Source: an uncultured bacterium (lineage in GTDB: Bacteria > Desulfobacterota > Binatia > UBA1149 > CAITLU01). From it: 64,000 nt of DNA. The stretch spans positions 155,026 to 219,025 of the forward strand of contig CAITLU010000013.1 in assembly GCA_903893315.1 (NCBI GenBank), written 5' to 3'. The notes below the pieces were generated by a model, which searched no databases, was not told the DNA's origin, and was given only the letters and a program-made list of their open reading frames with translations. The translations under genes and the position numbers were made by a program. Shown here piece after piece: positions 1 to 59,701 of this stretch; the stretch's first letter is position 1, and the number at the start of each line of letters is the position of its first letter.

Positions 1-957
1 GACCTCTTCGTCTCGTACACGTCGCGCGAAGGCCAGGGCTCGTACTTCGACTGCCCGATGATCGTCAACGGCCGCGAAGTCGCTTCGCGCAAACGGTACA
101 TCACCGAAGAAACCACCGGCTACGCTATCGAATTCATAGAGCAGGTAGTCGCACGACCAGCCGCCGAGCGCCGGCCCTTCGTCGTCTACCTTTCGCATCG
201 TCCCGGACACCCGCCCTATCAAGCCCCAGCCGCCATCCACGGGATGTACGACAACATCGACGTGACCAAAGTGTTGCCGCCGAATGTCGATTCGTGGTGG
301 TTCGGTAAGACCGGCGGCAACGTCTTCCAAGGAACGGCGCTGGGCTCGTACTACGATCAGTACCGCGGTTATCTGGAAACACTCACGGCGATGGACCGCG
401 ACATCGGGCGGTTGCTCACCCGCATCGACGAACTCGGCCTCAGAGACAACACCGCCGTCGTCTACATGGCCGACAACGGCATGCAGTGGGGAACTCACGG
501 AATGCACGGCATCCGCGAACCCTACGAAGACAGCGCCAGGCTGCCGTTGATCGTGCGCGCCCCGTGGCTGGTGCCCGACCCTGGCGCACTCAGAGAGCAA
601 CTCGTCGTCAACATCGACATCGCCCCCACGTTTCTCGAAATGGCCGGCGCAGCGCCGCTCGCTCACGCCGACGGCGAGAGCCTGGTGCCGCTCCTGCGCG
701 ACGCGAAGGCCAAGAGCCGCACGGCCTTCTTGATGGAGTTCTGGCGCTACTTTCCCGAAAACACGCCGACCTACCGCGCCGTACGCACGAGCACCCACAA
801 GTACGTGGAGTTCGAGCGGGGCCGCTCTCCGTGGCTTTTCAACGTCGCCGAAGATCCAGGCGAGACGCACAACCTGTACGGAACGCCGCAGGGCAACATG
901 GTGTTGCCGGAGTTACGTGGGATGCTCGAACGGATGAAAGCGGGGAAACGGCCGTAG
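1..957 (+). CDS. Sulfatase (arylsulfatase family), 5'-truncated at the window edge
   Basis: The frame is open from nt 1 in phase with ORF 58..957. The C-terminal sulfatase signature is present: YMADNGMQWGTHGMHG, then ...LFNVAEDPGETHNLYG at the C-terminus. The stop is at 957. Confidence 0.8.
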   Translation, partial: DLFVSYTSREGQGSYFDCPMIVNGREVASRKRYITEETTGYAIEFIEQVVARPAAERRPFVVYLSHRPGHPPYQAPAAIHGMYDNIDVTKVLPPNVDSWWFGKTGGNVFQGTALGSYYDQYRGYLETLTAMDRDIGRLLTRIDELGLRDNTAVVYMADNGMQWGTHGMHGIREPYEDSARLPLIVRAPWLVPDPGALREQLVVNIDIAPTFLEMAGAAPLAHADGESLVPLLRDAKAKSRTAFLMEFWRYFPENTPTYRAVRTSTHKYVEFERGRSPWLFNVAEDPGETHNLYGTPQGNMVLPELRGMLERMKAGKRP

Positions 958-1466
958 GTCGAATAGCCTGGCAACACGGGATGGAATCCGATCCGGCGTT
1001 TTTTGGGTGGAGTCTCAGGCGCCATGATCTGCCGGATAGCGTCGAACACGACCTTGAACTGGCTGTCGTATCGCCGCTCCAACGCGAAGAGCTTTCGCGC
1101 CATTTCCTCTTGGGACAGCAACAGACGACGCAGGCGTACGAACTTTCGCACGATCTCAACGTTGACGGCTACCGCGCGGGCGCCTCGTAGGACACCGGAA
1201 AGCATGGCAACTCCCTGCTCCGTGAACGCGTAAAACGCAGTATGACGTCCGCCCCAACTTGAGATCACAATTTGTGATCTCGAGTTCGTAAACTCAGCGT
1301 CGACAAGCTGGAACATGAAGTCCGCCGGAAATCGTTCGGCGTTCCGCTTCACGGCCTGCACAAGTGCACCGGTCGTTACACCGTACAAGAGGGCGAGATC
1401 GTGATCGAGCATCACCTTCTCAGAGCGGATCAGGTAGATCACGTTCTCGATACGTTCGGACGGCAC
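771..1466 (-). CDS. ORF6N-domain protein (KilA-N/antirepressor-like DNA-binding family); 3' end uncertain
   Basis: The N-terminal 170 aa match the ORF6N family pattern: IYLIRSEKVMLDHDLALLYGV...FMFQL...SQIVISSWGGRHTAFYAFTEQGVAMLSGVLR...VEIVRKFVRLRRLL...KVVFDAIRQIMAP. The ORF runs to 771 and overlaps the sulfatase 3' end convergently by about 187 nt. The tail has odd composition. Confidence 0.6.
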   Translation of the reverse strand: MPSERIENVIYLIRSEKVMLDHDLALLYGVTTGALVQAVKRNAERFPADFMFQLVDAEFTNSRSQIVISSWGGRHTAFYAFTEQGVAMLSGVLRGARAVAVNVEIVRKFVRLRRLLLSQEEMARKLFALERRYDSQFKVVFDAIRQIMAPETPPKKRRIGFHPVLPGYSTYGRFPAFIRSSIPRNSGNTMLPCGVPYRLCVSPGSSATLKSHGERPRSNSTYLWVLVRTAR

Positions 1467-2128
1467 AACGCCTTTTGTCGACTTTCACATTCGCCGTATG
1501 ACGGGAGCCCCAGTTACGGCAACGGCAGCCATGTCATAACCCTGCACTCAATCGGCCGGCCGGCCAGCCGGTCAGGTGGATTTTGGCGACCGCGGCGGCC
1601 GCCGGTTACTTTCGTCGTTAGGCCGATTCCATTTTCCTGGAGCCGCGACCGGGAGGTCCTGCATGGACAGTGACCCAACCGTGTCACGACCTGTGTCTTC
1701 GGGATCAATCGTCGGTGGAATGGCAGGTGCCGGTACGGGTCGATGCTGGCCGCGGTATTCTCGGCGTATCAGGCGGCGCATCTACCGGGCCGTACTCTTC
1801 GATGCAGTGCTTTCGGTAATAGACGCGTTGCCTGCAATCGCAGACTTCGCCAAGAGCGCTTGGGAGGACGTCCTGGGCCCAGTCGCCAACCTCGTTGTTA
1901 TTGTTCCGATGATCTGGATTGGAGTCTCTTGGTGGCGAGTCGGATTGAGATGCCGCTAGTGGGATTTCGTGCAACGGCTGAACATTTCATTCGGAGCAGC
2001 TTCTTGTCACCTTGCGCGGCGCCGACCGTTTCCGCCTTGTATTCCCGGCTAAATGACCGACGTTACCGTTTCGACAGCGAACACCCCTGTCGTACTTTCG
2101 TGCTTTTGTGAATGCCTATGAAACCGGG

Positions 2129-2293
2129 TCAACTCCAAATCGCGTCGAACACGACTCTGATTCGGCGATCGTACCGGCGTTCCCGCACCATAAGTTTACG
2201 GCCGAGTTCCTCTTGGGAGAGCAGCAGACGACGCACTCGCACAAGCGCTCGCACGATTTCGATGTCGACAGCCACGGCACAACCGCTTCGTAG
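2129..2293 (-). pseudogene. Truncated, degenerate second copy of the ORF6N gene (central/C-terminal segment only)
   Basis: The translation AVAVDIEIVRALVRVRRLLLSQEELGRKLMVRERRYDRRIRVVFDAIWS parallels residues about 95-150 of the intact copy. The DNA at 2138..2293 aligns with 1035..1190. Confidence 0.5.
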
Positions 2294-2361
2294 AACGCTC
2301 GAGGCATCGGTCCATGACCTGTTCGACGAAGCCGCACGGCGGGCATCGCCGCAACCTTCTC

Positions 2362-5184
<2,823 letters not shown>

Positions 5185-5203
5185 GGGGCAGACCGGAGGT
5201 TTA

Positions 5204-6577
5204 TCAGACGCTCGCGCACTGCTCGCGCAGCCGCGCCAGTTCGGTCTCGACGATGTTCCGGTACTCCGCCAGCGCGCTCTCGTCGCTGGCTTCGAAACGC
5301 AGCACCAGGATCGGCTGGGTATTGGACGCGCGGATCAAGCCCCAGCCTTTCTCGAACAGGACGCGCACGCCGTCGACGTCGATGATCTGGTAGCCGAGGT
5401 CACGAAAGCGCTGCTGGGCCGCGGCGGCGACCTTGAACTTGAGTTCATCGGGACAGTCGACACGAATTTCGGGGGTAAACACCGCCGGCGGAAGGTCGGC
5501 GAGAATCTCGGCCACGCGCTTGCCGCCGCGTGCCAGCACTTCGATCATGCGCGCGCCGGCGTAGATCCCGTCGTCGAAACCGTAATAGCGATCGGCAAAG
5601 AACAGATGCCCGCTCATCTCGCCGCCCAGCAGTGCGCCGGTCTCGCGCATCTTGGCCTTCAGCAGCGAGTGGCCCGCCTTCCACATGACGGCCGTGCCGC
5701 CGTGAGCCTCGATGTCGTCGTAGAGCCGCTGCGAGCATTTCACTTCTGAAACCACGGTCGCACCGGGATGCTCGGCCAGAACATCGCGCGAGAACACCAC
5801 CAGCATCTCGTCGCCCCAGATCACGCGCCCGTTTTCGTCGATTACCCCTACGCGATCGGCGTCACCGTCGAACGCAACGCCGAGATCGGCGCCGACTTCA
5901 CGAACCTTGGCGATACACTCGGCGATGTTTTCCTCCACCGTCGGGTCGGGGTGATGATTGGGAAAGCTGCCGTCGGGCTCACTGAAAAGCTCTATGACCT
6001 CACAGCCCATCTCGCGGTAAACGTCCGGCGCCACCGGGCCTGCGGTGCCGTTGCCGGAGTCGACCACCACTTTCACGCCCTGTCCGCAGCGCCCGAAATG
6101 TTCGGCCATGAAGCCCTGATACGCCGGAATGATCGGGTAAGTTTCCTGGCCGCCTTCGCCGCTGCAAAACTCCCCCGCCTCGATGAGACGGCGCAGATCC
6201 TGGATCTCGTCGCCGTAGATCGTGGTCTTGCCGACGACGATCTTGAAGCCGTTGTGGTCGGGAGGATTGTGACTGCCGGTCACCTGAATGCCGGCACTCA
6301 GATCGAGGTGATGGACGGCGAAGTACAGCAGCGGAGTCGGGCACATGCCTACGTCGACCACGTCGATGCCGCTCTCGCGCAGCCCCGCCATCAGCGCGGC
6401 GTGATAGCCGGGACCGCTCAGACGGCAATCGCGACCGACGGCGGCGCGAGAAATACCCTGAGCCGACAGCTTGGTCCCGAAGGCGCGTCCGAGCAGGGCC
6501 GCGAATTCGACGTCGTAGTCCTGCTCTGCGATGCCGCGAATGTCGTACTCACGGAATATCTGCGGATTCATTTTCAT
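5204..6577 (-). CDS. Phosphomannomutase/phosphoglucomutase (alpha-D-phosphohexomutase family)
   Basis: The active-site TGSHNPPDHNGFK is present, with the metal-binding DGDADR motif and the GGEMSGH motif. Confidence 0.9.
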   Translation of the reverse strand: MKMNPQIFREYDIRGIAEQDYDVEFAALLGRAFGTKLSAQGISRAAVGRDCRLSGPGYHAALMAGLRESGIDVVDVGMCPTPLLYFAVHHLDLSAGIQVTGSHNPPDHNGFKIVVGKTTIYGDEIQDLRRLIEAGEFCSGEGGQETYPIIPAYQGFMAEHFGRCGQGVKVVVDSGNGTAGPVAPDVYREMGCEVIELFSEPDGSFPNHHPDPTVEENIAECIAKVREVGADLGVAFDGDADRVGVIDENGRVIWGDEMLVVFSRDVLAEHPGATVVSEVKCSQRLYDDIEAHGGTAVMWKAGHSLLKAKMRETGALLGGEMSGHLFFADRYYGFDDGIYAGARMIEVLARGGKRVAEILADLPPAVFTPEIRVDCPDELKFKVAAAAQQRFRDLGYQIIDVDGVRVLFEKGWGLIRASNTQPILVLRFEASDESALAEYRNIVETELARLREQCASV

Positions 6578-6595
6578 GTTTTGCTCAACGCTCGT

Positions 6596-7573
6596 TCAGG
6601 AGGCCTTGGCGACTCGTGCGGAAGCCGTGCGGCTCATGCTCGCGGCCAGCAGGATGGCCGCTTCCATGCTGTCGGCGCTGGCGCGTCCGCTGCCCGCCAG
6701 ATCGTAGGCGGTGCCGTGGTCGGGCGACGTACGCAGAAACGGGAGCCCCATCGAAACATTCACTGCGTGGCGGAAATCGACCAGCTTCAGCGGTATCAAA
6801 GCCTGGTCGTGATACATGCAGAGCGCGGCATCGTAATCGCCGGCTACCACTGCCGCAAACATCGTGTCGGCAGGGAAAGGGCCTTTCGCGTCGATCCCGG
6901 CGCGGCGCAGACGTGCCACCGCTGGCGCTATCACGCGGCCTTCTTCGTCACCGAACAGGCCGCCTTCACCGGCGTGTGGATTCAAAGCCGCCACCGCCAG
7001 ACGCGGGCGTGCCAGGCCGTGATAGAGGCTGAGGTGTTCGGCAGTCACTCGACCGGCCGCGACGATGCGATCGACGCTGAGCAGACGCGGCACCTTGGCA
7101 ACGGCAACGTGGGTAGTCACCAGTACGACACGCAGGCGCGGCCCGGCGAGCATCATCGTTGCCGGACGGCCGGCCAGTTCGGACAGATACTCGGTGTGAC
7201 CGTCGTAGAGATGGCCGGCGCGATTCATCCACAGCTTGCTGAGCGGCGCCGTCGCCAACGCGTCGCATTCGCCCCGCGCAGTGGCCTGCGCCGCCGCTTC
7301 GAAATAGCGAAAAGCCGCTTCGCCGCAGCGTTTTGCCGCACGCGGCAGGGCGGCGTCGAGGCGCAACGCGGTGACCGCCTCGACCCTCTCGATGGCAGTG
7401 GGCGCAGCGGCTTTGATCTTGCGTATCCGGCGCGCGATCTCGAGCACGCCGAGGTCGCCGTAGACGAGCAGCCGACAGGCCCGTCTCACCTTCGCGCGCG
7501 CGGCAGCTTCGACGACGATTTCAGGCCCGATCCCGGCGGGGTCGCCGAGACTTACGGCAATCAGCGGCTTCAC
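6596..7573 (-). CDS. pdxA: 4-hydroxythreonine-4-phosphate dehydrogenase
   Basis: VKPLIAVSLGDPAGIGPEIV and NPHAGEGG motifs are present. The probable GTG start at 7573 overlaps the surA TGA (GTGA). The ORF-track N-terminal extension to 7648 is Arg-rich and probably spurious. Confidence 0.88.
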   Translation of the reverse strand: MKPLIAVSLGDPAGIGPEIVVEAAARAKVRRACRLLVYGDLGVLEIARRIRKIKAAAPTAIERVEAVTALRLDAALPRAAKRCGEAAFRYFEAAAQATARGECDALATAPLSKLWMNRAGHLYDGHTEYLSELAGRPATMMLAGPRLRVVLVTTHVAVAKVPRLLSVDRIVAAGRVTAEHLSLYHGLARPRLAVAALNPHAGEGGLFGDEEGRVIAPAVARLRRAGIDAKGPFPADTMFAAVVAGDYDAALCMYHDQALIPLKLVDFRHAVNVSMGLPFLRTSPDHGTAYDLAGSGRASADSMEAAILLAASMSRTASARVAKAS

Positions 7574-8655
7574 GATCCGGCAACGAGAGCGAGATCGTCG
7601 AGCAGCACTTCGACGCGGTGTTCCTTTCTCAGGTCGTCGTTGACCCACTTCTGGTAGCGCTCTTCGAGACGCGCATCGTAGAGTTTGTCGTGGATCTGCT
7701 GCGAGACTTCTTCGAGCGGGCGGCGTCCCTTCGAGTGAATTTTCAGAACCTTGACGACGTGCAGGCCGCCTCCGCCCTCGACCGGCTGCGAAACGTCGCC
7801 CGCGTCGAGTCCCTTGGCGGCGCGCTCGAAGTACTCAGCCATGGTGCCGCGCTCGAATTCACCGAGGCGCCCTTCGTCCGCGGCGGTGATTCCCTGCGAG
7901 TACTTGCGCGCCGCATCCGCAAAGTTTCGTTTCGCTTCGCGCACGACTTCCGTCGCCTGCGCACGCACGGCCGCGGCGGCTTCGGCATCGGCCGGAAGCG
8001 GCAGGAAGATGTCGGCGAGTTCGAGTCTTTCCGACTGCAAGAAGGCGGGATCGCTCTTCCAGGCTCTCTCCACCTCTTCCGGAGTTACGTTGACGCGGGA
8101 GCGGATCAGCATGTCGACCAGTGCGAGACGCTGAACCTCTTCACGCATGCGGTCGAAGTAGTCCGACCACTTCAGACCGGCGGACGCCAGAGCTTTTTCC
8201 ACCTGCTCGCGGGTCTGCCCTTCCTGCTGCAAGATCCCGTTGATGTAGTGCTCGACCATCTGGTCGTTTATGTGGACGCCGTTCTTCTCGAACTCGCCCA
8301 GCAGCAGACGCCGCTCGATCATGCCTTGCAGCAAGGCCTCGAAGTTGTCGCGCAGTTCGGGACGCAGGAACACCCTCGCCGTTTTCTGATACTCGCGAAG
8401 ATCGCGCAGCGTCAGCGGATCTCCGTCGACCACCGCAACCAGGCCGCCGAGAACCTTGGAATCTTCGCCGGCGGGTGCCTGTGCGGCAGGCGCCGCGACC
8501 ACCGGCGCAGCGGCCACGGGCGCGGCGGACTCTGACGCCATCTCCGCCGGCGCGTCGGCCTTGGCCGCGCAGCCTTGAACCACCGCCGCCAGCAGCGCCG
8601 CCGCAACCGCCACCTGACGGGCGACGACGAACGCCGGGGCCGAACAAGCGTTCAT
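7570..8655 (-). CDS. surA: SurA-like periplasmic chaperone/parvulin-type peptidyl-prolyl isomerase
   Basis: The signal peptide is MNACSAPAFVVARQVAVAAALLAAVVQGCA. A SurA N-terminal chaperone region and a parvulin domain are present. The gene sits in the conserved surA-pdxA linkage. Confidence 0.8.
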   Translation of the reverse strand: MNACSAPAFVVARQVAVAAALLAAVVQGCAAKADAPAEMASESAAPVAAAPVVAAPAAQAPAGEDSKVLGGLVAVVDGDPLTLRDLREYQKTARVFLRPELRDNFEALLQGMIERRLLLGEFEKNGVHINDQMVEHYINGILQQEGQTREQVEKALASAGLKWSDYFDRMREEVQRLALVDMLIRSRVNVTPEEVERAWKSDPAFLQSERLELADIFLPLPADAEAAAAVRAQATEVVREAKRNFADAARKYSQGITAADEGRLGEFERGTMAEYFERAAKGLDAGDVSQPVEGGGGLHVVKVLKIHSKGRRPLEEVSQQIHDKLYDARLEERYQKWVNDDLRKEHRVEVLLDDLALVAGS

Positions 8656-8668
8656 GCGCGGCTCACGC

Positions 8669-11600
8669 TCAGCCCCGCGCTCTTCGGAACGCTGTCGCGC
8701 CGCCGCGGCGCGCGCGGTCCTTGGCGTCTTGTCGACTCGGGTCATCATCTGATCGTCCTCCTTGGGGACCGGCGACGAGTCTGGCCAGCAGCTTCTCGAT
8801 CTCGTCGACCAAACCATTCCAATCCGGGGCGGCCGCCTGCATGGTCAGCACACCTTCGGGTCTTACTCGATAGCGCCTCGGCTGCTCGGTCGCCAACTGC
8901 AGAAGTTGCTGGCGGGAAACACCCGAGCGTTCGTCGAAGCGCAACGCCACCACGTTATCGCTGGCCTTGAGCGACACCACAAGGAGACGCTTGAGAGCGG
9001 GGCGCAAAGCCATGATGCGGACGAAGTTGGCGGCCTGACGCGGCAGCGGGCCGAAACGGTCCCGCAGCTCGTCGCGCAGACCGAGCAGGGCCTCGCCGTC
9101 AGGGGCGTTGGCCAGGCGTTTGTAGAGCAGCAAGCGCTCGCCGATGTCCTCGACGTACGAGCCGGGCAGGAAGGCCTCGGTGCCCAACTCGATCTCCGGC
9201 TCCACCTGGGCCAGGACCGCCCCGTCGCGCATCTCCTGAGTCGCCTCCTCCATCATGCGCAGGAACAGATCGAAGCCCACCGCCGCGATGTGGCCGGACT
9301 GGGCCTTGCCGAGCAGGTTGCCGGCCCCGCGGATTTCCAGATCGTGGGCCGCCAGCCGAAAGCCCGCGCCGAGGTCGTCGAGATCCTGCAACACCGCCAG
9401 ACGCTTGCGCGCGTCGTCGGTGATGCGCTCGCCCGGCACCAGCAGGTAGGCGTAGGCGCGCCGGTGCGAACGGCCGACGCGGCCGCGCATCTGGTAGAGC
9501 TGGGCCAAGCCGAAAGTGTCGGCGCGGTCGATCAGGATGGTGTTGGCGTTGGGGATGTCGAGACCCGACTCGATGATCGACGTACACACCAGCACGTCGA
9601 TCTTGTGGTCGAGGAACTCGACCATCACTTTTTCCAGTGCGCCTTCGTCCAGCTGTCCGTGCCCGACCCCGATGCGAGCGCCGCCGAGCAACTGGCCGAG
9701 GCGGCGCGCGGTTGCGTCGATCGAACTGACACGGTTGTGGACGAAGAAGACCTGCCCTCCGCGTCCCAGTTCGCGCTGCACCGCCTGAAGCACCAGGCCT
9801 TCGTCGTAACGCGCTACGTAGGTTCGGATCGACAGCCGATCCACCGGCGGTGTCTCGATCACGCTGAGGTCGCGCACCCCGCTGAGAGAAAGCTGCAAGG
9901 TGCGCGGGATCGGCGTCGCCGTCATCGTCAGCACGTCGACTTCGCGGCGCAGCGCCTTCATGTGCTCCTTGGCCTTGACGCCGAAGCGGTGCTCTTCGTC
10001 GATCACGATGAGGCCGAGGCGCGCAAAGCGCACGTCGGCCTGCAGCAGCCGGTGGGTTCCGACCACCACGTCCAGGGTTCCGTCGGCCAACCCGCGCACC
10101 ACCGCGGCGTTCTCGGCGTTGGTGGCAAAGCGCGACAGCACGCCCAGGCGCAGCGGGTAGCCTTCCAGCCGCGAGCGCAGCGTCTCGTAGTGCTGCTTGG
10201 CCAGCACCGTGGTCGGAACCAGGAAGGCCACCTGACGGCCCGCCATCGCCACCAGATAGGCCGCGCGAATGGCGACCTCGGTCTTGCCGTAACCGACGTC
10301 GCCGCACACCACCCGATCCATCGGTCTCTCGCGCGCCAGATCGGAAAGAATGTCGGCGATCGCGCCGAGTTGCCCTTCGGTTTCCTCGAACGGAAAGCGC
10401 GCCTCGAATTCCTCGAAATCGCTGCCTGGCGCGGCCCAGGCCGGGCGCGTGTGGACAGCGCGATAGGCCTCGAGGTCGAGCAGTTGGCGGGCCATCTCCA
10501 GGATCGAGTCGCGCGCGCGGCGCTTGGCCCTTTCCCACGAAGTTCCGCCGATCTTGTCGAGCGCGGGCTCGGCGCCGCCGGCACCGCTGTACTTCTCGAC
10601 CAAGTTGATGCGGTCGACCGGCAGGTAGTAGCGGTCACCGCCGGCGTACTCGATGTGCAGGAAGTCGCCTTCGGTGCCGCCCGCCTTCAGGTGACGCAGG
10701 CCATGATAGCGGCCGACTCCGTGATCGACGTGGACGACGTAATCTTCAGGCTTGAGTTCGGCCAGTGCCGACAGCATCCGTGAGCGCGCGGCCTTGCGGC
10801 GGCGCGGCCGCGAACGGCGCTCGCCGAACACCTCTTCGTCGCTGACGACGAGCAGGTGATCAGCCGGCAGGTTGAAGCCTTCGCGCAGGTGGCCCTCGAC
10901 CAGCCAGATCGCCTTCGGATCGGTCGGCGGCAACGGAGGCGGCGCCGCGAGCGCCTGCTCGCCGCCCGCCGCAGTCGCGGCCTTTTCGGCATCAGCCTGG
11001 GCTTTCGCCGCGGCCTTGCCCGCTGTCTTGGAAAGCAACGGCGGCGGCTCCCGGCGTTCCCCGCCCACCGCCCACGCAAACGATCTGGCGCGCCGCACGT
11101 TGTCGGCACCGGCCAGTCCCAGCATGTGCTCGATGCGACCGAGCTGGGTCGAATCCGACGCCATCATCACCACGCGGAAGCCATCGGCCCTGGCCGCGTC
11201 GAGCACCCGACGGACCGGCGCGAGGCCGCTCTCGGCTTTCTTCGCGCTGATGCGCACGCGCGCGGCCGCCAGTTCGGTATTGGTGCGAACCTCCACTCTC
11301 CACGAGCGGTGTCCGGCCTCACCCGCCGACTCGATTGCCTCGGTGGCGTCGAGTTCGACGCAGGGACGACGGCTCGTCAGTGCGCGCAGCTGCGAGCGCG
11401 AAAGGTACAGAAGCTCACGATCGGGAAAGAAACTTCCCGCCGCGGAGGCCGCTGCCGCGGCTTCACCCAGACGCACGTCGAGCGCATCGATGGCACTCTC
11501 GATCGCCGGTGGATCAACCGCCACCACCAGCGCACCCGCGTCGAGAAAATCCGCCAGCGAGCAGCGTTTGCCGTAGGCGTAGGGAGCCAGCAGTTCGACG

Positions 11601-12433
11601 CCGGGAAAGTGGACACCCGAAGCAAGGTACTCGTCCAGACGCCGGCGCTCGGAAGACGGCAGCAGCAGTTCCTCGCAACGCTCAGCGACCGTGCGCCGTA
11701 CATCAGCGGCAGCCATGCGCTCAAGCGCCACCGGCGCCGACGGCAGCACCACCAGATCCTCGCTCGGCTGGAAGGAACGCTGGTCGGAAGGATCGAAGAG
11801 TCGAATCGACTCGATGCTGTCTCCCGACAATTCCACTCTCAGCGGGTACTCGAAGCCCGGCGGCCACAGATCTACTATCCCGCCGCGCACTGCGACTTCG
11901 CCGGCTTCGTCGACAGTGGCCACCTTGCGATAGCCCACGCTCTCCAGACGCGGAACGAAGTCCTCCAGCAGCAGTTCGTCGCCCACCACGAAGTAGAGCG
12001 ACGAGGCGAGCAGCATCTCGCGCGGCATCGTCCACTGGGCCAGCGCTTCAACGGCGGCCACCACGATCGGCGCCTTGCTCTGGCAGAGACGGTGCAGCGC
12101 CGCGGTACGCGCCGCTTCGACCTCGGAAGACGGCGAGAGCATCTCCAACGGCGGCGCTTCACGCGCGGCGAACAGATGCACGCGTCTGGCCAGGAAACTG
12201 TCGTCGCCCGCCTCGCCGACAAAGGCTTGCAGTTCGACCACCATTTCCTCGGCCGCTTTCTCGTCGGCCACGACCACCAGGGCAGCGCGATCCTGGCCGT
12301 CGAGCAGGCGCGACAGAACGTAGGCCGGAGCGCCGCCGCCGAGACCCTGGAGACGCCAGAGCAGATTCGGAAAGTTTGCCAGCTCGGCGCGCAGCCCGGC
12401 TTGCAGTTCCTTGGTGGAGGGCGGCGGCGTCAA
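8669..12433 (-). CDS. mfd: Transcription-repair coupling factor
   Basis: The protein is 1254 aa. It has a UvrB-homology N-terminus, the RNAP-interaction region, superfamily-2 translocase motifs ([19 protein letters not shown]) and the TRG motif region. Confidence 0.95.
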
Positions 12434-12882
12434 GAGCGTTCGAGAACCGATACCAGTGCGCGCAGCCCGAGCAGGTAGCTGGTCGCCCCGAAGCCCATCA
12501 CTTGACCGACCGCCACATCGACGATCAGCGAACGGTGACGGAACTCTTCACGGCGGTGGATGTTGGAGAGGTGACACTCGACCACCGGTAGCGCGCAGGC
12601 GCTCACCGCGTCGCGAATCGCCACGCTGGTGTGGGTGTAGGCACCGGGGTTGATCAGGACTCCGCTGTTGCACGCGGCCGCCTGCTGGATGCGGGTGACT
12701 ATGTCGCCTTCGCCGTTGGACTGGTAAGTCTCCAGCGTCCAGCCGAGTTCGGCGGCCAACGCCGTCAGCGAAGCATCGATGTCGGCAAGCGTCGTGGTGC
12801 CGTAGATCTCAGGCTCGCGGCTGCCGAGCATGTTCAGGTTGGGCCCGTGAACGACGAGTATGGGTTTTCGTTTGCTGGTCAT
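12430..12882 (-). CDS. aroQ: Type II 3-dehydroquinate dehydratase
   Basis: The protein is 150 aa from [28 protein letters not shown]. It carries the AroQ signature. The upstream ORF extension is spurious. Confidence 0.9.
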
Positions 12883-12926
12883 CTGGCTTGGTCCTTCAGG
12901 GGTGTTCGGGTCGGCCGCGCGACCGC

Positions 12927-14639
12927 TCATTCCATCGCCGCGGCGATCTCCGCAACGTCGAGGGTTTCGGCGCGGCAACGGCCGAGGTCTTCGCACAGTA
13001 CGTAAGCCACACCAGCGCGCTCGGCTTTCTTGTCCAGCGCTATCGCCTTGCGAACGGCTTGCCGGTCGAGGCCGGCGGGCACCTGGTGTTCGAGCCCGAG
13101 ACGCACGAGCAATCTCTCGACACGGCGCGCAAGCTCGGACCCACACAGCCCGCGCCGCGCCGAAAGCCGCGCCGCCACTCCCATGCCGATGGCGACAGCC
13201 TCACCGTGCAGGTAGCGGTCGTAGCCGGTCACCTGCTCGACCGCGTGCGCGACGGTGTGGCCGAAGTTGAGAACGCGTCGCAGACCCGTCGTTTCAAACT
13301 CGTCCTTTTCGACGACGTCGGCCTTGATTCGCACGCAGCGGGCGATGATCGGCATCATCACCGCCGGGTCACGGGCCAGCACCGCGTCGGCCTCGGCTTC
13401 GATCCTCTCGAAGAGCGCGCGATCCAGGATGATGCCGTACTTGACCACCTCGGCCAGGCCCGCAAGGTACTCGCGCTGCGGCAGAGTCCCCAACGTGTCC
13501 GGATCGATCAGCACCAGGCTCGGCTGGTGGAAGGCCCCGACCAGGTTCTTGCCGTGGCTGCGGTCGATGCCGGTCTTGCCGCCGACGCTCGAATCCACGT
13601 GCGCCAGCAAAGTGGTAGGGATCATCACGAACCGGACCCCGCGCAGGATGGTAGCAGCGGCAAAACCCGTAAGATCGCCGACCACACCGCCGCCGAGAGC
13701 GACCAGCATCGCCTTACGATCGACACCGGCGTCGAGCACGCGGTCGTAGATCGTTTCGACGGTGGCCATCGTCTTGTAGCGTTCGCCGTCCGGAATCTCG
13801 ACGACATGAACGCGCCCGGCCAGCGTCGCGTCGGCACCGAGCAGAGCCTGTTCGACCGCCGCACCATACAGAGGCCGCACCGTCGAATTGGTGACGACGA
13901 ATATCTTCGAAGGCGCCAGTGCCGCGATGCGCGCAGCACCCGCGCCGAAGCAGCCGCACTCGATCAAGCAGTCATAGCCGCGCGGCCCGAGGTCCACGTG
14001 CACCGTTTCGCCGCCGGCACCGGTCGCGATCCGTTGCGTCATCCCCTGGCCCTGCCCCTGCCCTTGCCGCGTTTCTTGCCGCACCGGCTCGTGTCCCGCC
14101 GCGTCGTGGGTACTTCGAGCGCCGCGTTCGCGCAGACGCGGCGCCAGCACGGTGGCCACGCGCACGACCGCCTGATCCACAGTGAGCCCGTCAGTCTCCA
14201 CCATCACGTCGGCGCCGCGATAATGCGGAAGCCTTTCTTCGAGCAGCTTGCCCAGGCGTGCCGCCGCGTCTTCGCCGGCCGCCAGAGGTCTCTTGTCATT
14301 GCGGCCGACGCGTTCGAGAACGGTTTCAAGCGAAGTGACCAGGCAGACCACCGGCCCGAGGCGGCGCAGTGGCTCGCGGTTCGCCGCCTGTACGAAGGTT
14401 CCGCCGCCGGTCGCAATCACGCTGGCCCGTGCCGGCGCCAGGGTCGTGACCACCTCGTGCTCGACACGCCGGAACTCGATTTCCCCGTGACGCGAAAAAA
14501 ACTCTGCGATCGGCATGCCGATCTTCTCTTCGATGATCTGATCGGTGTCGATGAAGTCGTAGCCCAGACGCCTGGCCAGCCGGCGGCCGACTGCAGTCTT
14601 TCCGCTGGCCATGAAGCCTATGAGCACGACGTGGGACAT
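12927..14639 (-). CDS. aroKB: Bifunctional shikimate kinase / 3-dehydroquinate synthase (fused AroK-AroB)
   Basis: The N-terminus carries the Walker A of shikimate kinase ([22 protein letters not shown]) and the DTD motif. A linker containing QGQGQGQG follows. The C-terminal DHQ synthase carries [14 protein letters not shown] and the metal-binding region. It is a single uninterrupted ORF. Confidence 0.9.
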
Positions 14640-14824
14640 GGATGTCGAAGCCCGATGCGCTCGCCCTTGTTACCCCGCCGTAGCGCAAGCAAGGACGAAC
14701 CGCCGCTGAGCGTCGCGCACGCTATCACAGCAACCCCGCGGAACGCAGGCGTCCACTAGGTACGCCGCAGCGACCGAGTCGTCGCCCAACGCCGCAGATG
14801 GCCCCTTATGGACAGACTGCCTCC

Positions 14825-16351
14825 CTAATCGAGGACGCGTGGAGTAACCATCACTACCAACTCCTCATCCTCGCGCTCACGAGAGTGGCGACCGAAGAGG
14901 TTGCCGAGCAGCGGGACGTCGCGCAGGACCGGGATCCCGGCGCCGCTTCGCTGGCCGGACTCGCGCTGAAGCCCGCCGAGCACTGCGGTCTCGCCGTTGG
15001 CCACCAGTAATTCAGCGTCGACCATGCGGCTGAGTTCCTCGGGAATGTCGTCGGGCGGCAACGGAGCACCGAGGCTGCTCGACTTGGCCTTGATACGCAG
15101 CAGCACGCGGCGCCCGGCCCGCACCGACGGCGTCACTTCGAGACGCACGCCGACCGGAATCTCTTCAGTGGCGCGCTGGCCGTTGTCGACCTCGACGACG
15201 TCGCCGCCGACCACACTGCCGCGACTCGGCAAGCGGATGCGCAGGATGCGCACGCTCTCGACGGAGGCCGGGCTACCTTCGAGCATCACCACGCTCGGAC
15301 GCGAAACCACGTGGACGCGTCCGTCGGCTTCCATCGCCGAGATGCGCGCATCCAACGCTGAAGCACCGCCGGTGGCCAGCACCAGTGCCGCACTGCCGGA
15401 AACGGACGCCGGCGGAGGAAACTTGACGTCGGCGCCTACGTCACCGGCCAGCTTCCAGTCCACGCCGAGATCGAGGCGCGCCGAATGCGTCAACTCGACG
15501 ATCTTGGCTTCGAGCAGGACGCGGCGCCGCGGCCGATCCAATTCGCGCAGCAGGACAAGAGCGCGGTCGATCGCCTCGCGCGTGCCGGAAACCACCAGCG
15601 CGTTCGACGAAAGCTCGGGCACCACCGAAACCTTCAGGGGCTCCGCAGCTTTGGCCATGACTGCGGCCATCTCTTTGGCTGCCGCGTGAGCGAGCGGAAC
15701 GATGCGGGTCTCTATCGACGGCTCGGGTTTCTCGGGCTTTTCTGCCCCCGGCTCGCAGCCGGCCGTAGCCTTTGACCCGCCCGGCATATCAGCAGAAGCA
15801 GTGCCCAAAACCGCTTCGTCGGCGGCCACTGGGGCACCGGGTTCGCGACCACGCGGCTCTCGATTCGACGGCTGAGGACGCGATTGCGGGCGAACTTCGA
15901 TGAGGCCGTCGTCCAACGTGAAGTCGAAGCCGAACACGCGCGCGAACGCAGCCAGTCGCTGCTCCCACGCAAGGTTGCCGCCGTCCGTGGCGGTCAGGTC
16001 GCCGTGGACTTCGGGACTCACGACCAGATCGCGGCCGGCCTCGTGTGCAACTTCCCCGAGCCAGGCAGACAGCGGCCTCGTTTGCACCAGCGGCGTCGCG
16101 CGCGACGAGACGATCGCATCGGGAATGGCCGCTGCGGCTGGGCGGTTCGGCGCATCTGTCGCCTGCGAACGCGCAGCGTCGACCGTCCCGACCACCGTGG
16201 CAGACGGAGGTTGCAGGTACGCGCCCACCGGACCGCGCAATAGCCAGACTGAACAGACCGCCACCACCGCGACTGCGGCGCACCACGCGGCGCTACGGCG
16301 GCGGCCGCGGCGGCGATCGTTCTCCAGCAGATCAGCGTGCACGGCGGGCAC
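14825..16351 (-). CDS. pilQ: Secretin (type IV pilus PilQ / T2SS GspD family) outer-membrane channel
   Basis: The C-terminal secretin domain is present (VLRDVPLLGNLFG, ELVVMVTPRVLD). N0/STN-like and KH-like N domains lie upstream. It sits immediately upstream of aroK-aroB as in canonical pilMNOPQ-aroKB loci. The start may be internal. Confidence 0.8.
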   Translation of the reverse strand: MPAVHADLLENDRRRGRRRSAAWCAAVAVVAVCSVWLLRGPVGAYLQPPSATVVGTVDAARSQATDAPNRPAAAAIPDAIVSSRATPLVQTRPLSAWLGEVAHEAGRDLVVSPEVHGDLTATDGGNLAWEQRLAAFARVFGFDFTLDDGLIEVRPQSRPQPSNREPRGREPGAPVAADEAVLGTASADMPGGSKATAGCEPGAEKPEKPEPSIETRIVPLAHAAAKEMAAVMAKAAEPLKVSVVPELSSNALVVSGTREAIDRALVLLRELDRPRRRVLLEAKIVELTHSARLDLGVDWKLAGDVGADVKFPPPASVSGSAALVLATGGASALDARISAMEADGRVHVVSRPSVVMLEGSPASVESVRILRIRLPSRGSVVGGDVVEVDNGQRATEEIPVGVRLEVTPSVRAGRRVLLRIKAKSSSLGAPLPPDDIPEELSRMVDAELLVANGETAVLGGLQRESGQRSGAGIPVLRDVPLLGNLFGRHSREREDEELVVMVTPRVLD

Positions 16352-17138
16352 CGAACCAGGCCAGCGCCAGGCCTACCGGAACCGCAAGGTCGTCACCCAG
16401 CGCGTGCGCCGCACGCTCGGCCTCGGGACTGACACTCACGGCCGCTAACGGCTGCGGTGACGCGAGCTGCGCGCCGGGAGATTGCCGCAACGACGAATGC
16501 GCCGAAGAACCCGGCGACGGTACCAGCGACGGCGACGAGGCACCCAAGGTGTCGGCCAGCGTCACCAGCGCGCAGGCTTCGCAGTCCAGTGCGAGCAGGC
16601 GAAGACCGGCACGGCGAAACAAACCCTGGGCCTGGCTGACGGCGCGAAGCTGGGCGCGAACCCGCAGCCCCGAATTGGCGGAATCACCGGCTGCCACCTT
16701 GATGTTTGCCACACGCTCGGCGGCCGTCGGCTCCGCACCGTCGGCGACCACCGCACCGCCGTCGGCCACCATCGTTTCGCCGACCGGAGACGCCGCAGCG
16801 CTGCCGCGCCGGACGCGCGTCTCACCTGCCCGGTCGATGGTGCAGAATGGCGCAGCCAGCGCAGCGACGTGGCCGAAACGATCGGCGCCCAGCAACCACG
16901 CCAGTTCGACGATGCCCGGCGCGAACAGCGACGGCGGACCGCCGTGCGCGTAGGAAGCGGCGCAGGCTTCGAGCAACGGCTCATCTGCGGTGCGGACGAT
17001 GACGGCCGCGACCAGTCGATCAGCGGCGAGATACCAGAATGTGGCGCGACCGGCCCTGAGTGATGCGAACATGACCGCGCCACCCTGCCCGCGTCGGTCC
17101 CGCGCGCGCAACGACGGCGATGTAATGGAACGCAGCAA
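16332..17138 (-). CDS. Hypothetical protein (weak PilM/N/O/P-like character at best)
   Basis: A 268 aa ORF sits just upstream of the secretin. No recognisable motifs. A high-GC artefact is possible. Confidence 0.25.
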   Translation of the reverse strand: MLRSITSPSLRARDRRGQGGAVMFASLRAGRATFWYLAADRLVAAVIVRTADEPLLEACAASYAHGGPPSLFAPGIVELAWLLGADRFGHVAALAAPFCTIDRAGETRVRRGSAAASPVGETMVADGGAVVADGAEPTAAERVANIKVAAGDSANSGLRVRAQLRAVSQAQGLFRRAGLRLLALDCEACALVTLADTLGASSPSLVPSPGSSAHSSLRQSPGAQLASPQPLAAVSVSPEAERAAHALGDDLAVPVGLALAWFGARRAR

Positions 17139-17183
17139 ACAGACGCGCTGCGAACGAACCGCCGGCTATCCCCCGCGACGCGA

Positions 17184-18002
17184 TCAGCGCGGCAAGCGCG
17201 ACAGTACTTCCTGGGCGAGAGTCGCGACGTGAGTCCCGTCGGCGGCAAACACGTGGCCGATCGCCAGCCCGCGACCTCCCACGTAGTTGTGGCATGACAT
17301 GTCGTGCAGGTGCCACGCATCGGCACGCAGCGGACGGTGGAACCAGATGGTGTGATCGAGACTCGCGTTGAACATCTTCTCGCCGGCCTCGCTGCGTCGC
17401 CGCGCTTCGGGATGGGAACGGATAACGGTGTCGGTGGGAAGGTCGTCGGACAGGTAGGCGAGCGCGCAGCGCTGCATCAGCTGATCGTCGCCGAGGTCGC
17501 TCGTCACCTTCATCCAGGCGCCCGTGCGGCCTGCGCCGGTGCCGGCGGGTTCGGCCAGGACGCCGTCCGGAAGGAAGCGGCGGTCGAAGAACTCGCTCCA
17601 CGAAGTGGCCGGCAGATCTTCGGGCGCAGGCAGACCTCCGGGCATCGGCACCGTCTGGATGTCGTCGCTGTCCTCGTGACACTGAAACGAAGCTTCGAGG
17701 TTCAAGATGGCGCCTATCGACTGGCGGGCAACGACGCGGCGGGTGGCAAAGCTGTGCCCGTTGCGGATGCGGTCGACCTCGTAGCGCACCGGCTCCTGGT
17801 TGTCACCGCGGCGGATGAAGTAGGCGCGCAGCGAATGCGGCAGCAGACCCGCTTCGACCGTGTTGGCCGCGGCACGAAGCGCCTGGGCGACGATGTGCCC
17901 GCCGTAAAGACCGCCCCACGCGTAGCTGAGCCCTTCACCGACGTAGACGTCGGGGCCGTGAGAAGCGAGGTCGAACAGTTCGCTGAGGTTGCGTGATGCC
18001 AT
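17184..18002 (-). CDS. tesB: Acyl-CoA thioesterase II
   Basis: The protein is 272 aa from MASRNLSELFDL. It has the double hotdog fold pattern of TesB (GGHIVAQALRAA...). Confidence 0.85.
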   Translation of the reverse strand: MASRNLSELFDLASHGPDVYVGEGLSYAWGGLYGGHIVAQALRAAANTVEAGLLPHSLRAYFIRRGDNQEPVRYEVDRIRNGHSFATRRVVARQSIGAILNLEASFQCHEDSDDIQTVPMPGGLPAPEDLPATSWSEFFDRRFLPDGVLAEPAGTGAGRTGAWMKVTSDLGDDQLMQRCALAYLSDDLPTDTVIRSHPEARRRSEAGEKMFNASLDHTIWFHRPLRADAWHLHDMSCHNYVGGRGLAIGHVFAADGTHVATLAQEVLSRLPR

Positions 18003-18257
18003 CCGGTTGCCTTCCTCGAAGCGTGGTCGCGCCGGACTCGCCTGCGGGAACCAACGGCAACGCATCCACGACCCGGCGCGATCGCCGCGCGCACCAGAGC
18101 ACGGCGATCGAAAAGTTGCACACCAGATGATCACAACGGCTGCGACGACCGGCGCGTCGCGACGCGCCGGCCGAAGCTGCGGCTCGGTCTTCCGGTTCCG
18201 CCGACGGTCTGCATCGACAATGCGGCGCCACCGTGCGACACGGCCCTCACTCCTCCA

Positions 18258-57887: not shown

Positions 57888-59297
57888 CTATGCCCGGCCC
57901 GGCCTTCTCTTCACCCTGGCCTGGGTCCTTTCTTCGGCTTTTCTCTTGAAGATCGGGACGATGGTGAGGGTGTACGCGGTGGTGAAAAGGAAGAAGCCGG
58001 CCATCGCCAGAGCCACCCAGTAATTCTGGAAGAGCACCTTGCCTTCGTAGTCCCGCGTCGCGTCCGAGAACAGGCCGATCAGCAGGCCAGCGAACACCAC
58101 GATGGTGACAATGGGGATCGTGTAGCCGAGCGGGACCTTGAACGACCTCTCCTTGTCGGGGAACTTCATCCTCAGCCGGATCACGCACACCGCCGCCACG
58201 ATGTAGATGAAGCACTCGAGCGCCGCGGCCATCACGATCAGGAAGAAGTACTGCCCCGTAAGCAGGGTCAGCAAAGACACCACGGCGGAGAGCAGCGACA
58301 GGAAGAGGATCGACACCCACGGACTCGCATGCACGGGGTGGAGCTTGCTGAAGACCCGCGGCAGCACGTTGTCGCGCGCCATCGCATAGGAGAAACGTGA
58401 AGTGTTGAGAAGACCGGAGTTGAAGGACGTGACCGACGCAAGAATGCTCATCAGCACGAAGAAAAGGCCCCCGACCGGACCGAAGAGGTTGCGACCGAAC
58501 ACGATGTGCGGAATCGGAGTCGGCGAGGAGAGCTGTTCCCTGATCTGCTCCTGAGTAAGTCCGACGTACAACCCCACCGTAAACAACGAATAGGTGCAGG
58601 TCAGGATGCCGATGGCCCAGAGCATCCCTCTGCCGATCAGTTTGTAGTCCGTAGTTTCCTCGGCGAGGGGCGCGACCCACTCGAAGCCGACGAACAGGAA
58701 CACGCCCACCGCAGCCGCCTGGATGATGTTACTGAGCGTGAATCTGTCGCTGTGGGTCGCCGCGACGACGTCCACACCGTTCTTCGAAATCGAATAGATC
58801 GACACCCCGACCAAGAAGGCGATCATCACGTAGGTCATTATGTCCTGCGCGATGCCGGTGATGAGTACGCCGCGGTAGTTTATGTAAGCGACGAAGAAGA
58901 CGAAGAAGAACAACCAGAAATACCGATCGAAGACCGGCCCGACGAGCCTGATCGTACTGGTCAGCACGCTGGAGAGCAGGTAACTTTCCGCTCCCACCAT
59001 CGCGATCCCGAGCACCACGTAGAACATCCCGATGATGATCGCCACCCTCTCGCTGAAGGCGTGCTGTATGAAGAGCTTGATGCCCGCCGCGCTCGGATAC
59101 AGCGCCGTCAGTTCCGAAAAGCACATCGCGGACAGCAGGCAGAAAAAGCCCGCTACCAGCACGGAAATCCACGCCAGTTCTCCGACCAGGACGGTGGCGA
59201 TCTGGAGCCCCGCCAGGTAACACGAGGTGGCGATCGCCATTCCCGCGGACGTCGAAATCACCGTCCGCAGCTTCAGCACTTTGCGCAGCTCTGTCAT
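57888..59297 (-). CDS. APC-family amino acid/polyamine permease
   Basis: The protein is 469 aa with about 12 predicted TM helices. The N-terminal TVISTSAGMAIAT motif is typical of the APC superfamily. Confidence 0.85.
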   Translation of the reverse strand: MTELRKVLKLRTVISTSAGMAIATSCYLAGLQIATVLVGELAWISVLVAGFFCLLSAMCFSELTALYPSAAGIKLFIQHAFSERVAIIIGMFYVVLGIAMVGAESYLLSSVLTSTIRLVGPVFDRYFWLFFFVFFVAYINYRGVLITGIAQDIMTYVMIAFLVGVSIYSISKNGVDVVAATHSDRFTLSNIIQAAAVGVFLFVGFEWVAPLAEETTDYKLIGRGMLWAIGILTCTYSLFTVGLYVGLTQEQIREQLSSPTPIPHIVFGRNLFGPVGGLFFVLMSILASVTSFNSGLLNTSRFSYAMARDNVLPRVFSKLHPVHASPWVSILFLSLLSAVVSLLTLLTGQYFFLIVMAAALECFIYIVAAVCVIRLRMKFPDKERSFKVPLGYTIPIVTIVVFAGLLIGLFSDATRDYEGKVLFQNYWVALAMAGFFLFTTAYTLTIVPIFKRKAEERTQARVKRRPGRA

Positions 59298-59309
59298 CGC
59301 CGGATTCCT

Positions 59310-59669
59310 CTAAGCGTCGGGCCAGATGATCATCGTGATCGCGTCGAGCCGCATGACGTCTTCCTGGCTGGCCTTGACCCGGATCTCTCCCTGAAGGTAC
59401 TTCTGCGAAGGATTGAGATCGCCCCAGAACATGTCGCACAGATACTCACTGCGCGAGGTGACCACGATGTCGGGCGTTCCCGACGCCCCCGACTCGAAGG
59501 ACACGATCTCTCCCTTGACGACGTTCATCGTAAAACGATCGTCGTTGTCGTCGGCGATGAAATGCAGCAGCTTGGTCCAGTCTCTCTGCATCTTGCGCAG
59601 GCGTTTGTTGTCGTTGCACTGCACCTGGTAGTCGGCGAGCGCTTCCAGAATTTCCTGACTCGTTGCCAT
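59310..59669 (-). CDS. SCP2 sterol-carrier-like domain protein
   Basis: The protein is 119 aa with SCP2-like C-terminal pattern ...LQGEIRVKASQEDVMRLDAI. Confidence 0.65.
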   Translation of the reverse strand: MATSQEILEALADYQVQCNDNKRLRKMQRDWTKLLHFIADDNDDRFTMNVVKGEIVSFESGASGTPDIVVTSRSEYLCDMFWGDLNPSQKYLQGEIRVKASQEDVMRLDAITMIIWPDA

Positions 59670-59701
59670 CGGTCCTCCCTTGTGTCGCCGGTTCTCGCGA
59701 C

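Follow-up and report, generated by a model that had tools for sequence, protein, structure and literature searches.

We analysed a 64-kb stretch of DNA from contig CAITLU010000013.1 of an uncultured bacterium (assembly GCA_903893315.1), referred to below as the window, and in it a segment of about 1.4 kb located between the convergent genes of a sulfatase and of UvrA. The segment contains an open reading frame (ORF) of the ORF6N family, a 90-nt hairpin upstream of it and a fragment of a second ORF6N gene. We consider it probable, at roughly 80%, that this segment is what is left of integron gene cassettes, now stranded apart from any integron. Its main piece (approximately positions 978–1617) would be a nearly complete cassette comprising an inverted ORF6N gene, a short promoter region and an attC recombination site on the plus strand.

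The attC site

1534–1623, plus strand: attC site of 90 nt, with the R'' box TCATAAC at 1534–1540, the R' box GTTAGGC at 1617–1623 and the expected crossover between G1617 and T1618.

We built a covariance model (R1) from 11 attC sites located beside unrelated, non-ORF6N cassettes in the loci L195–L197. A search of the complete window with R1, filters switched off, yielded a single significant match, which covers the full length of the model at 1534–1623 on the plus strand with 60.8 bits (E = 4.8e-15). The runner-up scored 11.8 bits. Two sets of ORF6N loci served as controls: 647 kb of viral loci gave no match at all, and 378 kb of distant loci gave one site of the close subfamily together with a weak match in L098 (24.3 bits, E = 0.00098).

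Known attC sites are 57 to 141 nt long, a range that includes the 90 nt observed here. They are characterized by RYYYAAC and GTTRRRY boxes, an L stem, spacers and an extrahelical base (PMC5027507). In the window, the R' box GTTAGGC fits the consensus exactly, and the R'' box TCATAAC keeps the AAC with two other positions off consensus. The single-strand folding energy of the hairpin region was no better than that of shuffled sequences. The structure had to be judged by comparison instead. In an alignment of 24 distinct attC sites, 97.6% of the cells were paired, compared with 11–58% in a control with slid partner columns. Compensatory changes were present in 7 of 14 pairs, which was matched in none of 500 shuffles. 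The TAAC/GTTA pairs hold in 98.9% of the cells. The L stem consists of 10 pairs (97.1% paired, five with compensatory change), accompanied by 9-nt unpaired spacers and a variable centre. A bulged base is located on the 5' arm of the top strand, corresponding to the 3' arm of the bottom strand.

Close relatives share a conserved layout upstream of the gene, in which a long imperfect hairpin is separated by spacers from a YTAAC box before it and from the GTTATGAC box after it; the start codon follows about 70 nt further on. In L005 the sequence of the hairpin stem is wholly different and the pairing is nonetheless kept. The homology between the window and L002, the closest contig of different context, ends at the outer box of the attC site. 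These comparisons establish 1534–1623 as an integron attC site with respect to both its identity and its predicted structure.

All attC matches of R1 lie on the strand opposite to ORF6N, and the position of the bulge agrees with the ORF6N sense strand being the bottom strand, the one that recombines. The ORF6N gene is therefore an inverted cassette.

A hairpin about 70 nt upstream of a start codon, which accompanies the gene in 8 of 10 subfamily loci, might also act on the ORF6N gene as an RNA leader, terminator or operator instead of being a recombination site. We regard this as hardly credible, since the same element separates unrelated genes in the arrays described below, lies upstream of a conserved promoter-like layout, and has no run of T after the hairpin. 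Moreover, the homology between copies stops exactly at the outer box, and an Rfam search of positions 1–8000 at E ≤ 1 gave no match.

Relatives in cassette arrays

Relatives that are 71–82% identical to the window protein sit within arrays whose other genes are small, unrelated and located on the opposite strand (ParE, Barstar, GNAT, DUF4267, SnoaL, SUKH, RraB, Cupin, BrnT/MqsA, PIN, TIR and others). The intergenic sites of these arrays are 90 nt long and follow the pattern RYYTAAC-ATTTCACTCAACCGG...CCGCCGGTTACTTCAGTC-GTTAGGC; the window hairpin belongs to the same family. Arrays with such attC sites were found in L195–L198 and in L003. At the other end of the gene, the relatives terminate in GAG TCA TAA|C, which is the reverse complement of GTTATGAC. 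In L196 the attC site preceding the ORF6N cassette ends in G|TTATGA, the reverse complement of the ORF6N stop box, and this places the cassette boundary inside the stop box. In more distant ORF6N loci the relation between stop box and upstream box is absent.

The array of L201 (NCBI GCA_029262375.1, JAJCZM010000044.1) is headed by a divergent, degraded integron integrase at 19661–20320 on the plus strand. It is recognizable by pieces 1–88, 234–287 and 289–314 of TIGR02249 and has suffered an internal deletion and a frameshift. L201 is a decaying chromosomal integron; its attC sites belong to other types, which are not scored by R1. A strict tyrosine-recombinase regular expression found nothing in the array loci.

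Several further observations concern these loci. In L201 about 20 small cassettes follow the degraded integrase (7430–19577, minus strand). On the 274-kb contig of L003, DUF433, a DDE transposase fragment and ORF6N lie between three consecutive attC sites (6191–8004), together a small cluster that lacks an integrase and is surrounded by ordinary genes. L195 holds a lone, short attC site of 60 nt, TCTAACTATTCGTCCAAGCCGACGCCGCTTCGCGGCTCGGCTTAACTCAGTCGTTAGCC, within its 90-nt attC array (2115–2174, minus strand), which we take to be nearly the same as the attC site of the clinical aadA7 cassette. A HigB/HigA pair precedes the ORF6N cassette in one population (L008 66–640, L006 1704–1988), and the called higB gene is lost in some variants of these loci. 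The pair could be a neighbouring toxin-antitoxin cassette.

The earlier note on this DNA had taken the segment for a likely mobile-element remnant, by our reading that of a prophage or of an integrative and conjugative element (ICE) with an antirepressor-type gene. Distant ORF6N proteins are indeed annotated as anti-repressors (PHROG 4792, E = 1.5e-21), and distant ORF6N genes adjoin integrases, transposases and ArdA on plasmids and conjugative elements or occur on viral contigs. The close subfamily, however, bears attC sites within cassette arrays, and R1 is without a match in the viral ORF6N loci. Matches to phage proteins numbered four, all of them weak. The note had suggested searching phage DNA and looking for flanking repeats or att sites. 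Searches of 50,697 phage and 72,556 plasmid records gave no match at the DNA level, and apart from the ORF6N repeat itself no direct or inverted repeats flank the segment. We found neither an integrase motif (by a crude scan) nor structural or conjugation genes, att repeats, a tRNA target or similarity to known elements; the sole tRNA of the window, examined for tRNA and tmRNA genes as integration targets, is a tRNA-Pro at 41.6 kb. A phage or ICE origin is thereby largely refuted and very improbable, and the attC anatomy and the relatives in cassette arrays take its place. What stands of the note is the outline of an old, foreign and eroded insertion: the segment appears to be derived from a mobile element, is eroded and is not conserved in relatives.

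The ORF6N gene and its damaged ends

978–1466, minus strand: ORF6N core of 163 codons, read from GTG at 1466 (PF10543; alpha/beta domain of DNA-binding type, long helix, basic tail).
771–977, minus strand: read-through tail of about 68 codons, antisense to the 3' end of the sulfatase gene and homologous to no relative.
1485–1490, minus strand: ATG of the family (1490–1488) followed by TGA (1487–1485), as judged from the alignment with L002 (ATG GGG AAA vs ATG TGA AAG) and from the N-termini of the relatives.
1494–1522, minus strand: putative promoter TTGCCG-17 nt-ATACGG, proposed from its layout and weakened by a 4-nt deletion compared with L002.

The complete ORF (771–1466, minus strand) encodes 231 amino acids and matches the Pfam family ORF6N (PF10543) with 104.8 bits (E = 2.9e-30), above the gathering cut-off of 27.8. 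The match extends over residues 9–92 and profile positions 2–86 of 86. A match to Phage_pRha scored 18.2, under the cut-off of 29.9. There are at least 8000 ORF6N relatives, and the figures on identity and length refer to the best 120. These are 66–90% identical, typically comprise 172–175 amino acids and align only to the first ~71% of the window ORF. The closest relative (P0002) is 90% identical to the core, and dozens more reach 70–86%. Some relatives come from metagenome-assembled genomes (MAGs) labelled as different candidate phyla.

The C-termini of the relatives read ...RRIGFRPxES*. The window is 88% identical to L002 over 977–1621 and unrelated to it outside this range. At the 3' end of the gene the homology stops near 977–983, where the last few codons and the stop codon of the window gene have been replaced. 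A complete cassette would end in GAG TCA TAA, and its terminal box GTCATAA|C would be the partner of the GTTATGAC box of the attC site. In the excised circle the two boxes would form a perfect R box, which the integron integrase would cut at AA|C. With the terminal box missing from the window, the stop codon is gone as well and the ORF runs 68 codons into the antisense strand of the sulfatase gene. This loss explains the overlap of 187 nt with the sulfatase ORF (58–957, plus strand), for which the earlier note had correctly given about 190 nt. The high third-position GC content of the 771–977 frame is consistent with an antisense reading of the sulfatase frame. The overlap is an annotation trap.

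The 5' end is altered too. Here the ATG used by the family is directly followed by TGA, so that translation can restart only at the GTG at 1466, and 4 nt are deleted relative to L002 just upstream of this ATG. The core between the two damaged ends is well kept. It departs from its relatives at three columns that are at least 90% conserved (57 relatives: mean 2.1, maximum 6), and its ratio of non-synonymous to synonymous substitution rates (dN/dS) against L002 is 0.17. We considered the core as a pseudogene and found this unsupported by either figure. The identical 231-residue form is present on at least 15 contigs of public assemblies. The description of 771–1466 as an intact ORF6N gene accordingly holds for the ORF, its strand and its Pfam family and fails for the ends. 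The comparisons show, for the relatives, the cassette boundaries and the array and integrase context and, for the window gene, the damage at its ends.

Nine of ten subfamily members keep the layout GTTATGAC-10 nt-TTGnnn-17 nt-GTAnnn-7 to 10 nt-start codon upstream of the gene. Generic scans for sigma-70 promoters and terminators found nothing. The conserved layout suggests that the ORF6N cassette gene carries its own promoter and a start of the leaderless type.

The second ORF6N fragment and the intervening DNA

2139–2351, minus strand: fragment of a second ORF6N gene (approximately codons 68–150), frameshifted and cut at both ends, delimited by alignment with L005.
1618–2138, no strand: gap of 520 nt, which opens with TTAGGC, as cassettes usually do, and contains a 98-residue ORF and a 12-nt attC-like motif.
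1981–1992, plus strand: the 12-nt attC-like motif AACATTTCATTC, the only copy in the window.

A direct repeat connects 1036–1193 with 2139–2296 at a spacing of 1103 nt (71.5% DNA identity over 158 nt). At the protein level 37 of 55 residues are identical (67%, E = 2e-16). Apart from the gene itself, the fragment is the sole ORF6N-like stretch in the window (tblastn, E = 1.6e-12). It aligns best with L005, at 77.1% over 214 nt (window 2351–2139), with a 1-nt insertion that shifts the frame. The earlier note had reported the fragment in its correct orientation at 2129–2293, an extent we correct to 2139–2351, and had rightly stated that the N-terminal half is missing: codons 1 to ~67, most of the N-terminal domain, are gone.

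The same orientation, the spacing and the protein identity of the two copies would also fit a resident host gene that was duplicated in tandem, with subsequent decay of one copy; the note had likewise read the fragment as a decayed partial tandem copy. The identity of the fragment to L005 (77.1% over 214 nt) exceeds, however, that to the adjacent gene (71.5% over 158 nt), which identifies it as a second member of the family and not as a local tandem copy. In addition, the nearest relatives for which there are data lack the segment, and its low GC content is unlike that of the host. Duplication in the host is therefore improbable.

The fragment begins about 11 nt from the uvrA stop codon. At this junction the window reads TGA GAGAAGGTTG, compared with GTGACCTCAAGTTG in L005. 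Here (2351–2364) the fragment adjoins the stop codon of uvrA with its 5' end, which is located at or within the right arm of a palindrome that is found inside ORF6N genes and is described below. This palindrome may have been the breakpoint of the second copy; the match is too short to be sure.

For the DNA between the two copies, the statement of the earlier note that 1470–2110 contains no confident gene is right as far as genes are concerned, and the region is not featureless in that the attC site lies inside it. The best ORF of the gap is 1663–1959 (plus strand, 98 residues), which is preceded by GGAGG. As a gene it was rejected: it matches no family, a comparison with 1.84 billion representative proteins gave no real homologue, and GC content by codon position of the coding type is absent. 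The motif AACATTTCAYTC at 1981–1992 corresponds to the attC consensus of R'' plus spacer on the same strand as the attC site; 0.12 copies are expected at ≤1 mismatch. R1 gave it 5.5 bits and did not score it as an attC site. The best R1 score for a second attC site within 1900–2450 was 6.7 bits, and no hairpins were predicted in 1950–2145. We also tried 1993–2138 as a point-mutated attC site joined to an ORF6N 3' end, and discarded this, as the alignment scores do not exceed those of shuffled sequences.

Flanking genes and base composition

58–957, plus strand: sulfatase gene, 3' part (Pfam SGSH_C and Sulfatase), left boundary of the segment.
2362–5184, minus strand: uvrA, with its stop codon at 2362–2364, right boundary of the segment.

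The C-terminus of the sulfatase is complete, since its relatives align through residues 297–299 of 299. To the right of the segment, uvrA and pmm were identified by translation, and pdxA, surA and mfd by collinearity with annotated relatives. The nearest named relatives of UvrA belong to Candidatus Binatia (~80% identity); a UvrA 79% identical to that of the window was also seen on a JGI contig (P0129). The order aroQ-mfd-surA-pdxA-pmm-uvrA of the window recurs in two relatives, whose UvrA proteins are 92% and 82% identical to that of the window. This common order extends from ~13,000 down to 2362–2369 and stops at the uvrA stop codon, which is the outcome of the comparison of uvrA junctions that the earlier note had recommended. 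The relative with the 82% identical UvrA has neither an ORF6N gene nor a sulfatase gene downstream of uvrA; other genes are located there. In the relative with the 92% identical UvrA the contig ends 160 nt past uvrA, and these 160 nt (L202 10851–11010) are unrelated to the window. Repeated or variable DNA at this junction might be the reason for the assembly break in L202.

Sulfatase relatives were found in MAGs of Polyangiales/Myxococcales (73–82% identity). Among 17 loci compared from the sulfatase side, none contains uvrA or ORF6N, and the only feature that the five closest of them and L018 share with the window is the sulfatase gene. The relatives of the two flanks differ, being Candidatus Binatia for the uvrA operon and Polyangiales/Myxococcales for the sulfatase. 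The sulfatase side could itself be the result of acquisition or rearrangement. The gene orders show that the segment is not conserved in the related genomes compared here. The segment lies where the gene order breaks, flanked by two convergent genes that are both complete, and this position fits neutral DNA that has been trimmed back to functional genes.

With 58.3% GC, positions 977–2351 are the lowest-GC part of the whole window (mean 64.8%) and fall into the lowest 0.6% of 1375-nt windows. The low-GC patch noticed earlier at 1470–2110 is real (58.8%, bottom 3% among windows of equal size), and its actual extent is 977–2351. The second-lowest GC content occurs at 58400–60100, where an amino-acid permease gene lies beside a class-III aminotransferase gene, an ordinary region.

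A palindrome inside the ORF6N coding sequence

1256–1286, minus strand: palindrome with 15-nt arms, in sense orientation AACTCGAGATCACAA A TTGTGATCTCAAGTT, covering the codons N-L-K/R-S-Q-I-V-I/T-S-S-W.

We compared 152 unique ORF6N coding sequences from the loci L002–L200. On average 11.3 of the 15 positions are paired, compared with 5.3 after the same peptides were re-encoded with their own codon usage, and the palindrome is individually significant in 84% of the sequences. In 105 sequences with the same register, 12.97 of 15 positions are paired (2.4–4.4 upon sliding of the partner, 10.15 in column shuffles). Two to four different types of Watson-Crick pairs occur at 9 of the 12 core pairs. 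Paired changes in the arms also alter amino acids, namely K/I (GAAAT/ATTTC), R/T (GAGGT/ACCTC), C/G (TGCC/GGCA) and F-H/E (TTTCA/TGAAA). The codons of the palindrome end in A or T, in genes with a third-position GC content of 0.7–0.8, and the residues they encode are the least confident part of the predicted domain structure. Non-Watson-Crick pairs of the sense strand are A.C in 60 cases vs G.T in 23, counts that are uncorrected for relatedness; this excess of A.C is a hint that the antisense strand folds.

Tentatively, and at slightly less than even odds, we propose that ORF6N genes in general hold a hairpin of 12–15 bp in the codons of the DNA-binding domain that is kept by selection at the nucleotide level. 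If so, a very common candidate defence gene would contain a cis-acting element of RNA or single-stranded DNA, which could act in regulation, processing or breakage. We found no description of an intragenic ORF6N hairpin in the literature searched. A conserved hairpin in the coding sequence would be a testable handle on the control of ORF6N genes.

Candidate function of the ORF6N protein

Hidden Markov models (HMMs) of the candidate defence family PDC-S05 from PADLOC, which comprises single-gene candidates of the ORF6N/RhuM type, match the ORF6N protein with E-values of 6.8e-49, 4.1e-47 and 1.2e-29. For PDLC04856 the match (E = 4e-47) spans profile positions 9–170 of 177, and for PDLC04869 E is 7e-49. 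In E. coli B, the plating of T7 and T5 fell about 1000-fold with one representative of PDC-S05 that bears a RhuM domain (bioRxiv 10.1101/2024.09.26.614923), and chromosomal integrons have been reported as stores of defence cassettes (bioRxiv 10.1101/2024.07.02.601686). It is plausible that the ORF6N product is an anti-phage protein, and we treat it as a candidate on the basis of these profile matches.

An AlphaFold 2 (AF2) model with a predicted local distance difference test (pLDDT) score of 79.5 consists of an alpha/beta domain (residues 1–95), a long helix (residues 96–148) and a disordered, basic tail. Neither a sequence search of the PDB nor Foldseek gave anything significant; the best weak fold match was a Ski/Dachshund domain (E = 0.2).

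Proposed origin of the segment

Based on the cassette anatomy and on the context of the relatives, we propose the following history. An integron integrase would have placed cassettes here, whether as a small cluster or through insertion into a genomic site. One of them would be the nearly complete cassette with the inverted ORF6N gene and its attC site, and a second would have carried an ORF6N gene from another branch of the family, of which the frameshifted remnant of 213 nt abutting the uvrA stop codon is left. Later deletions would have trimmed the DNA back to both flanking genes.

The two ORF6N pieces could instead have arrived separately, as single cassettes inserted at an ordinary genomic site (attC x attG), with no multi-cassette cluster. 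The two copies do belong to different branches of the family, only one attC site scores, and single attC sites lacking an integron integrase (SALINs) are common, with insertion into the genome shown experimentally (bioRxiv 10.1101/2022.09.11.507474). We nevertheless consider separate arrival unlikely, though less so than the phage, host-duplication or regulatory explanations. The attC site ends in G|TTAGGC, the commonest junction between cassettes in arrays and not an arbitrary target; a unique 12-nt attC-like motif in the same orientation lies between the copies; and the expected intact left end TTATGAC is absent.

A number of points weigh against the interpretation as cassette debris. The tyrosine-recombinase motif H.LRH is absent from a six-frame translation of the window, a crude test that reaches 1.5 kb to the left of the site. 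The strict recombinase expression also missed the degraded intI of L201, which makes the integrase motif test a weak one. R1 detected no second scoring attC site in the 64 kb, and R1 itself is a home-made model that represents a single type of attC site. The left terminal box is absent, and with it one of the two defining junctions is not visible in the window. The promoter is proposed from the conserved layout only, and its -10 hexamer is poor. Searches for homologues, with the attC model and by alignment gave no explanation of the 520 nt that separate the copies. Finally, the suggested defence role derives from an HMM match with a candidate family whose assayed member has a RhuM domain, which the window protein does not have.

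None of the three parts of a complete integron, intI, attI and a cassette array, was found in the window. What is present in the 64 kb is one scoring attC site and one 12-nt relic motif, together with a negative but crude scan for an integrase motif. By its anatomy the locus is probably an isolated cassette remnant of the type of SALINs and of clusters of two or more attC sites lacking an integrase (CALINs), an ordinary kind of relic.

Comparison with known systems

The segment is of little consequence for the source genome, in which it is a small, partly dead intergenic relic. Its wider relevance lies in the assignment of an abundant and highly conserved ORF6N clade to integron cassettes, inverted and apparently self-expressed. 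We did not find a link between ORF6N and integron cassettes in the searched literature that mentions ORF6N. The match to a candidate anti-phage family is in line with the recent idea that chromosomal integrons store defence genes.

Phage anti-repressors and regulators of the Rha and KilA-N kind share an N-terminal domain of the same broad kind with the window protein (Pfam ORF6N, PHROG 4792 and, weakly, Phage_pRha). Unlike these regulators, the window gene has no phage context and its close subfamily is borne on cassettes. The HMMs of PDC-S05 match the protein strongly, but Pfam detects only ORF6N in it, whereas the protective member of that family has Virulence_RhuM.

Cassettes of sedentary chromosomal integrons may carry their own promoter, as toxin-antitoxin cassettes do (PMC13108822), or defence functions (bioRxiv 10.1101/2024.07.02.601686), and the ORF6N cassette is apparently similar. 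Like them it is present in many arrays, and it matches a candidate defence family. In contrast to toxin-antitoxin cassettes it consists of a single gene and is inverted relative to the other cassettes in every case seen.

SALINs, CALINs and the insertion of cassettes at genomic sites have already been described (Cury et al. 2016, PMC4889954; Loot et al., bioRxiv 10.1101/2022.09.11.507474). The window locus resembles a SALIN in having one coding sequence and one attC site between housekeeping genes, with no integrase seen nearby, and its type of attC site likewise recurs in true arrays elsewhere. It differs from a single SALIN insertion in that its cassette is without the terminal box and stop codon and is accompanied by a second gene fragment and a possible attC relic. 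With these features the locus looks like an eroded small cluster and not like a clean insertion.

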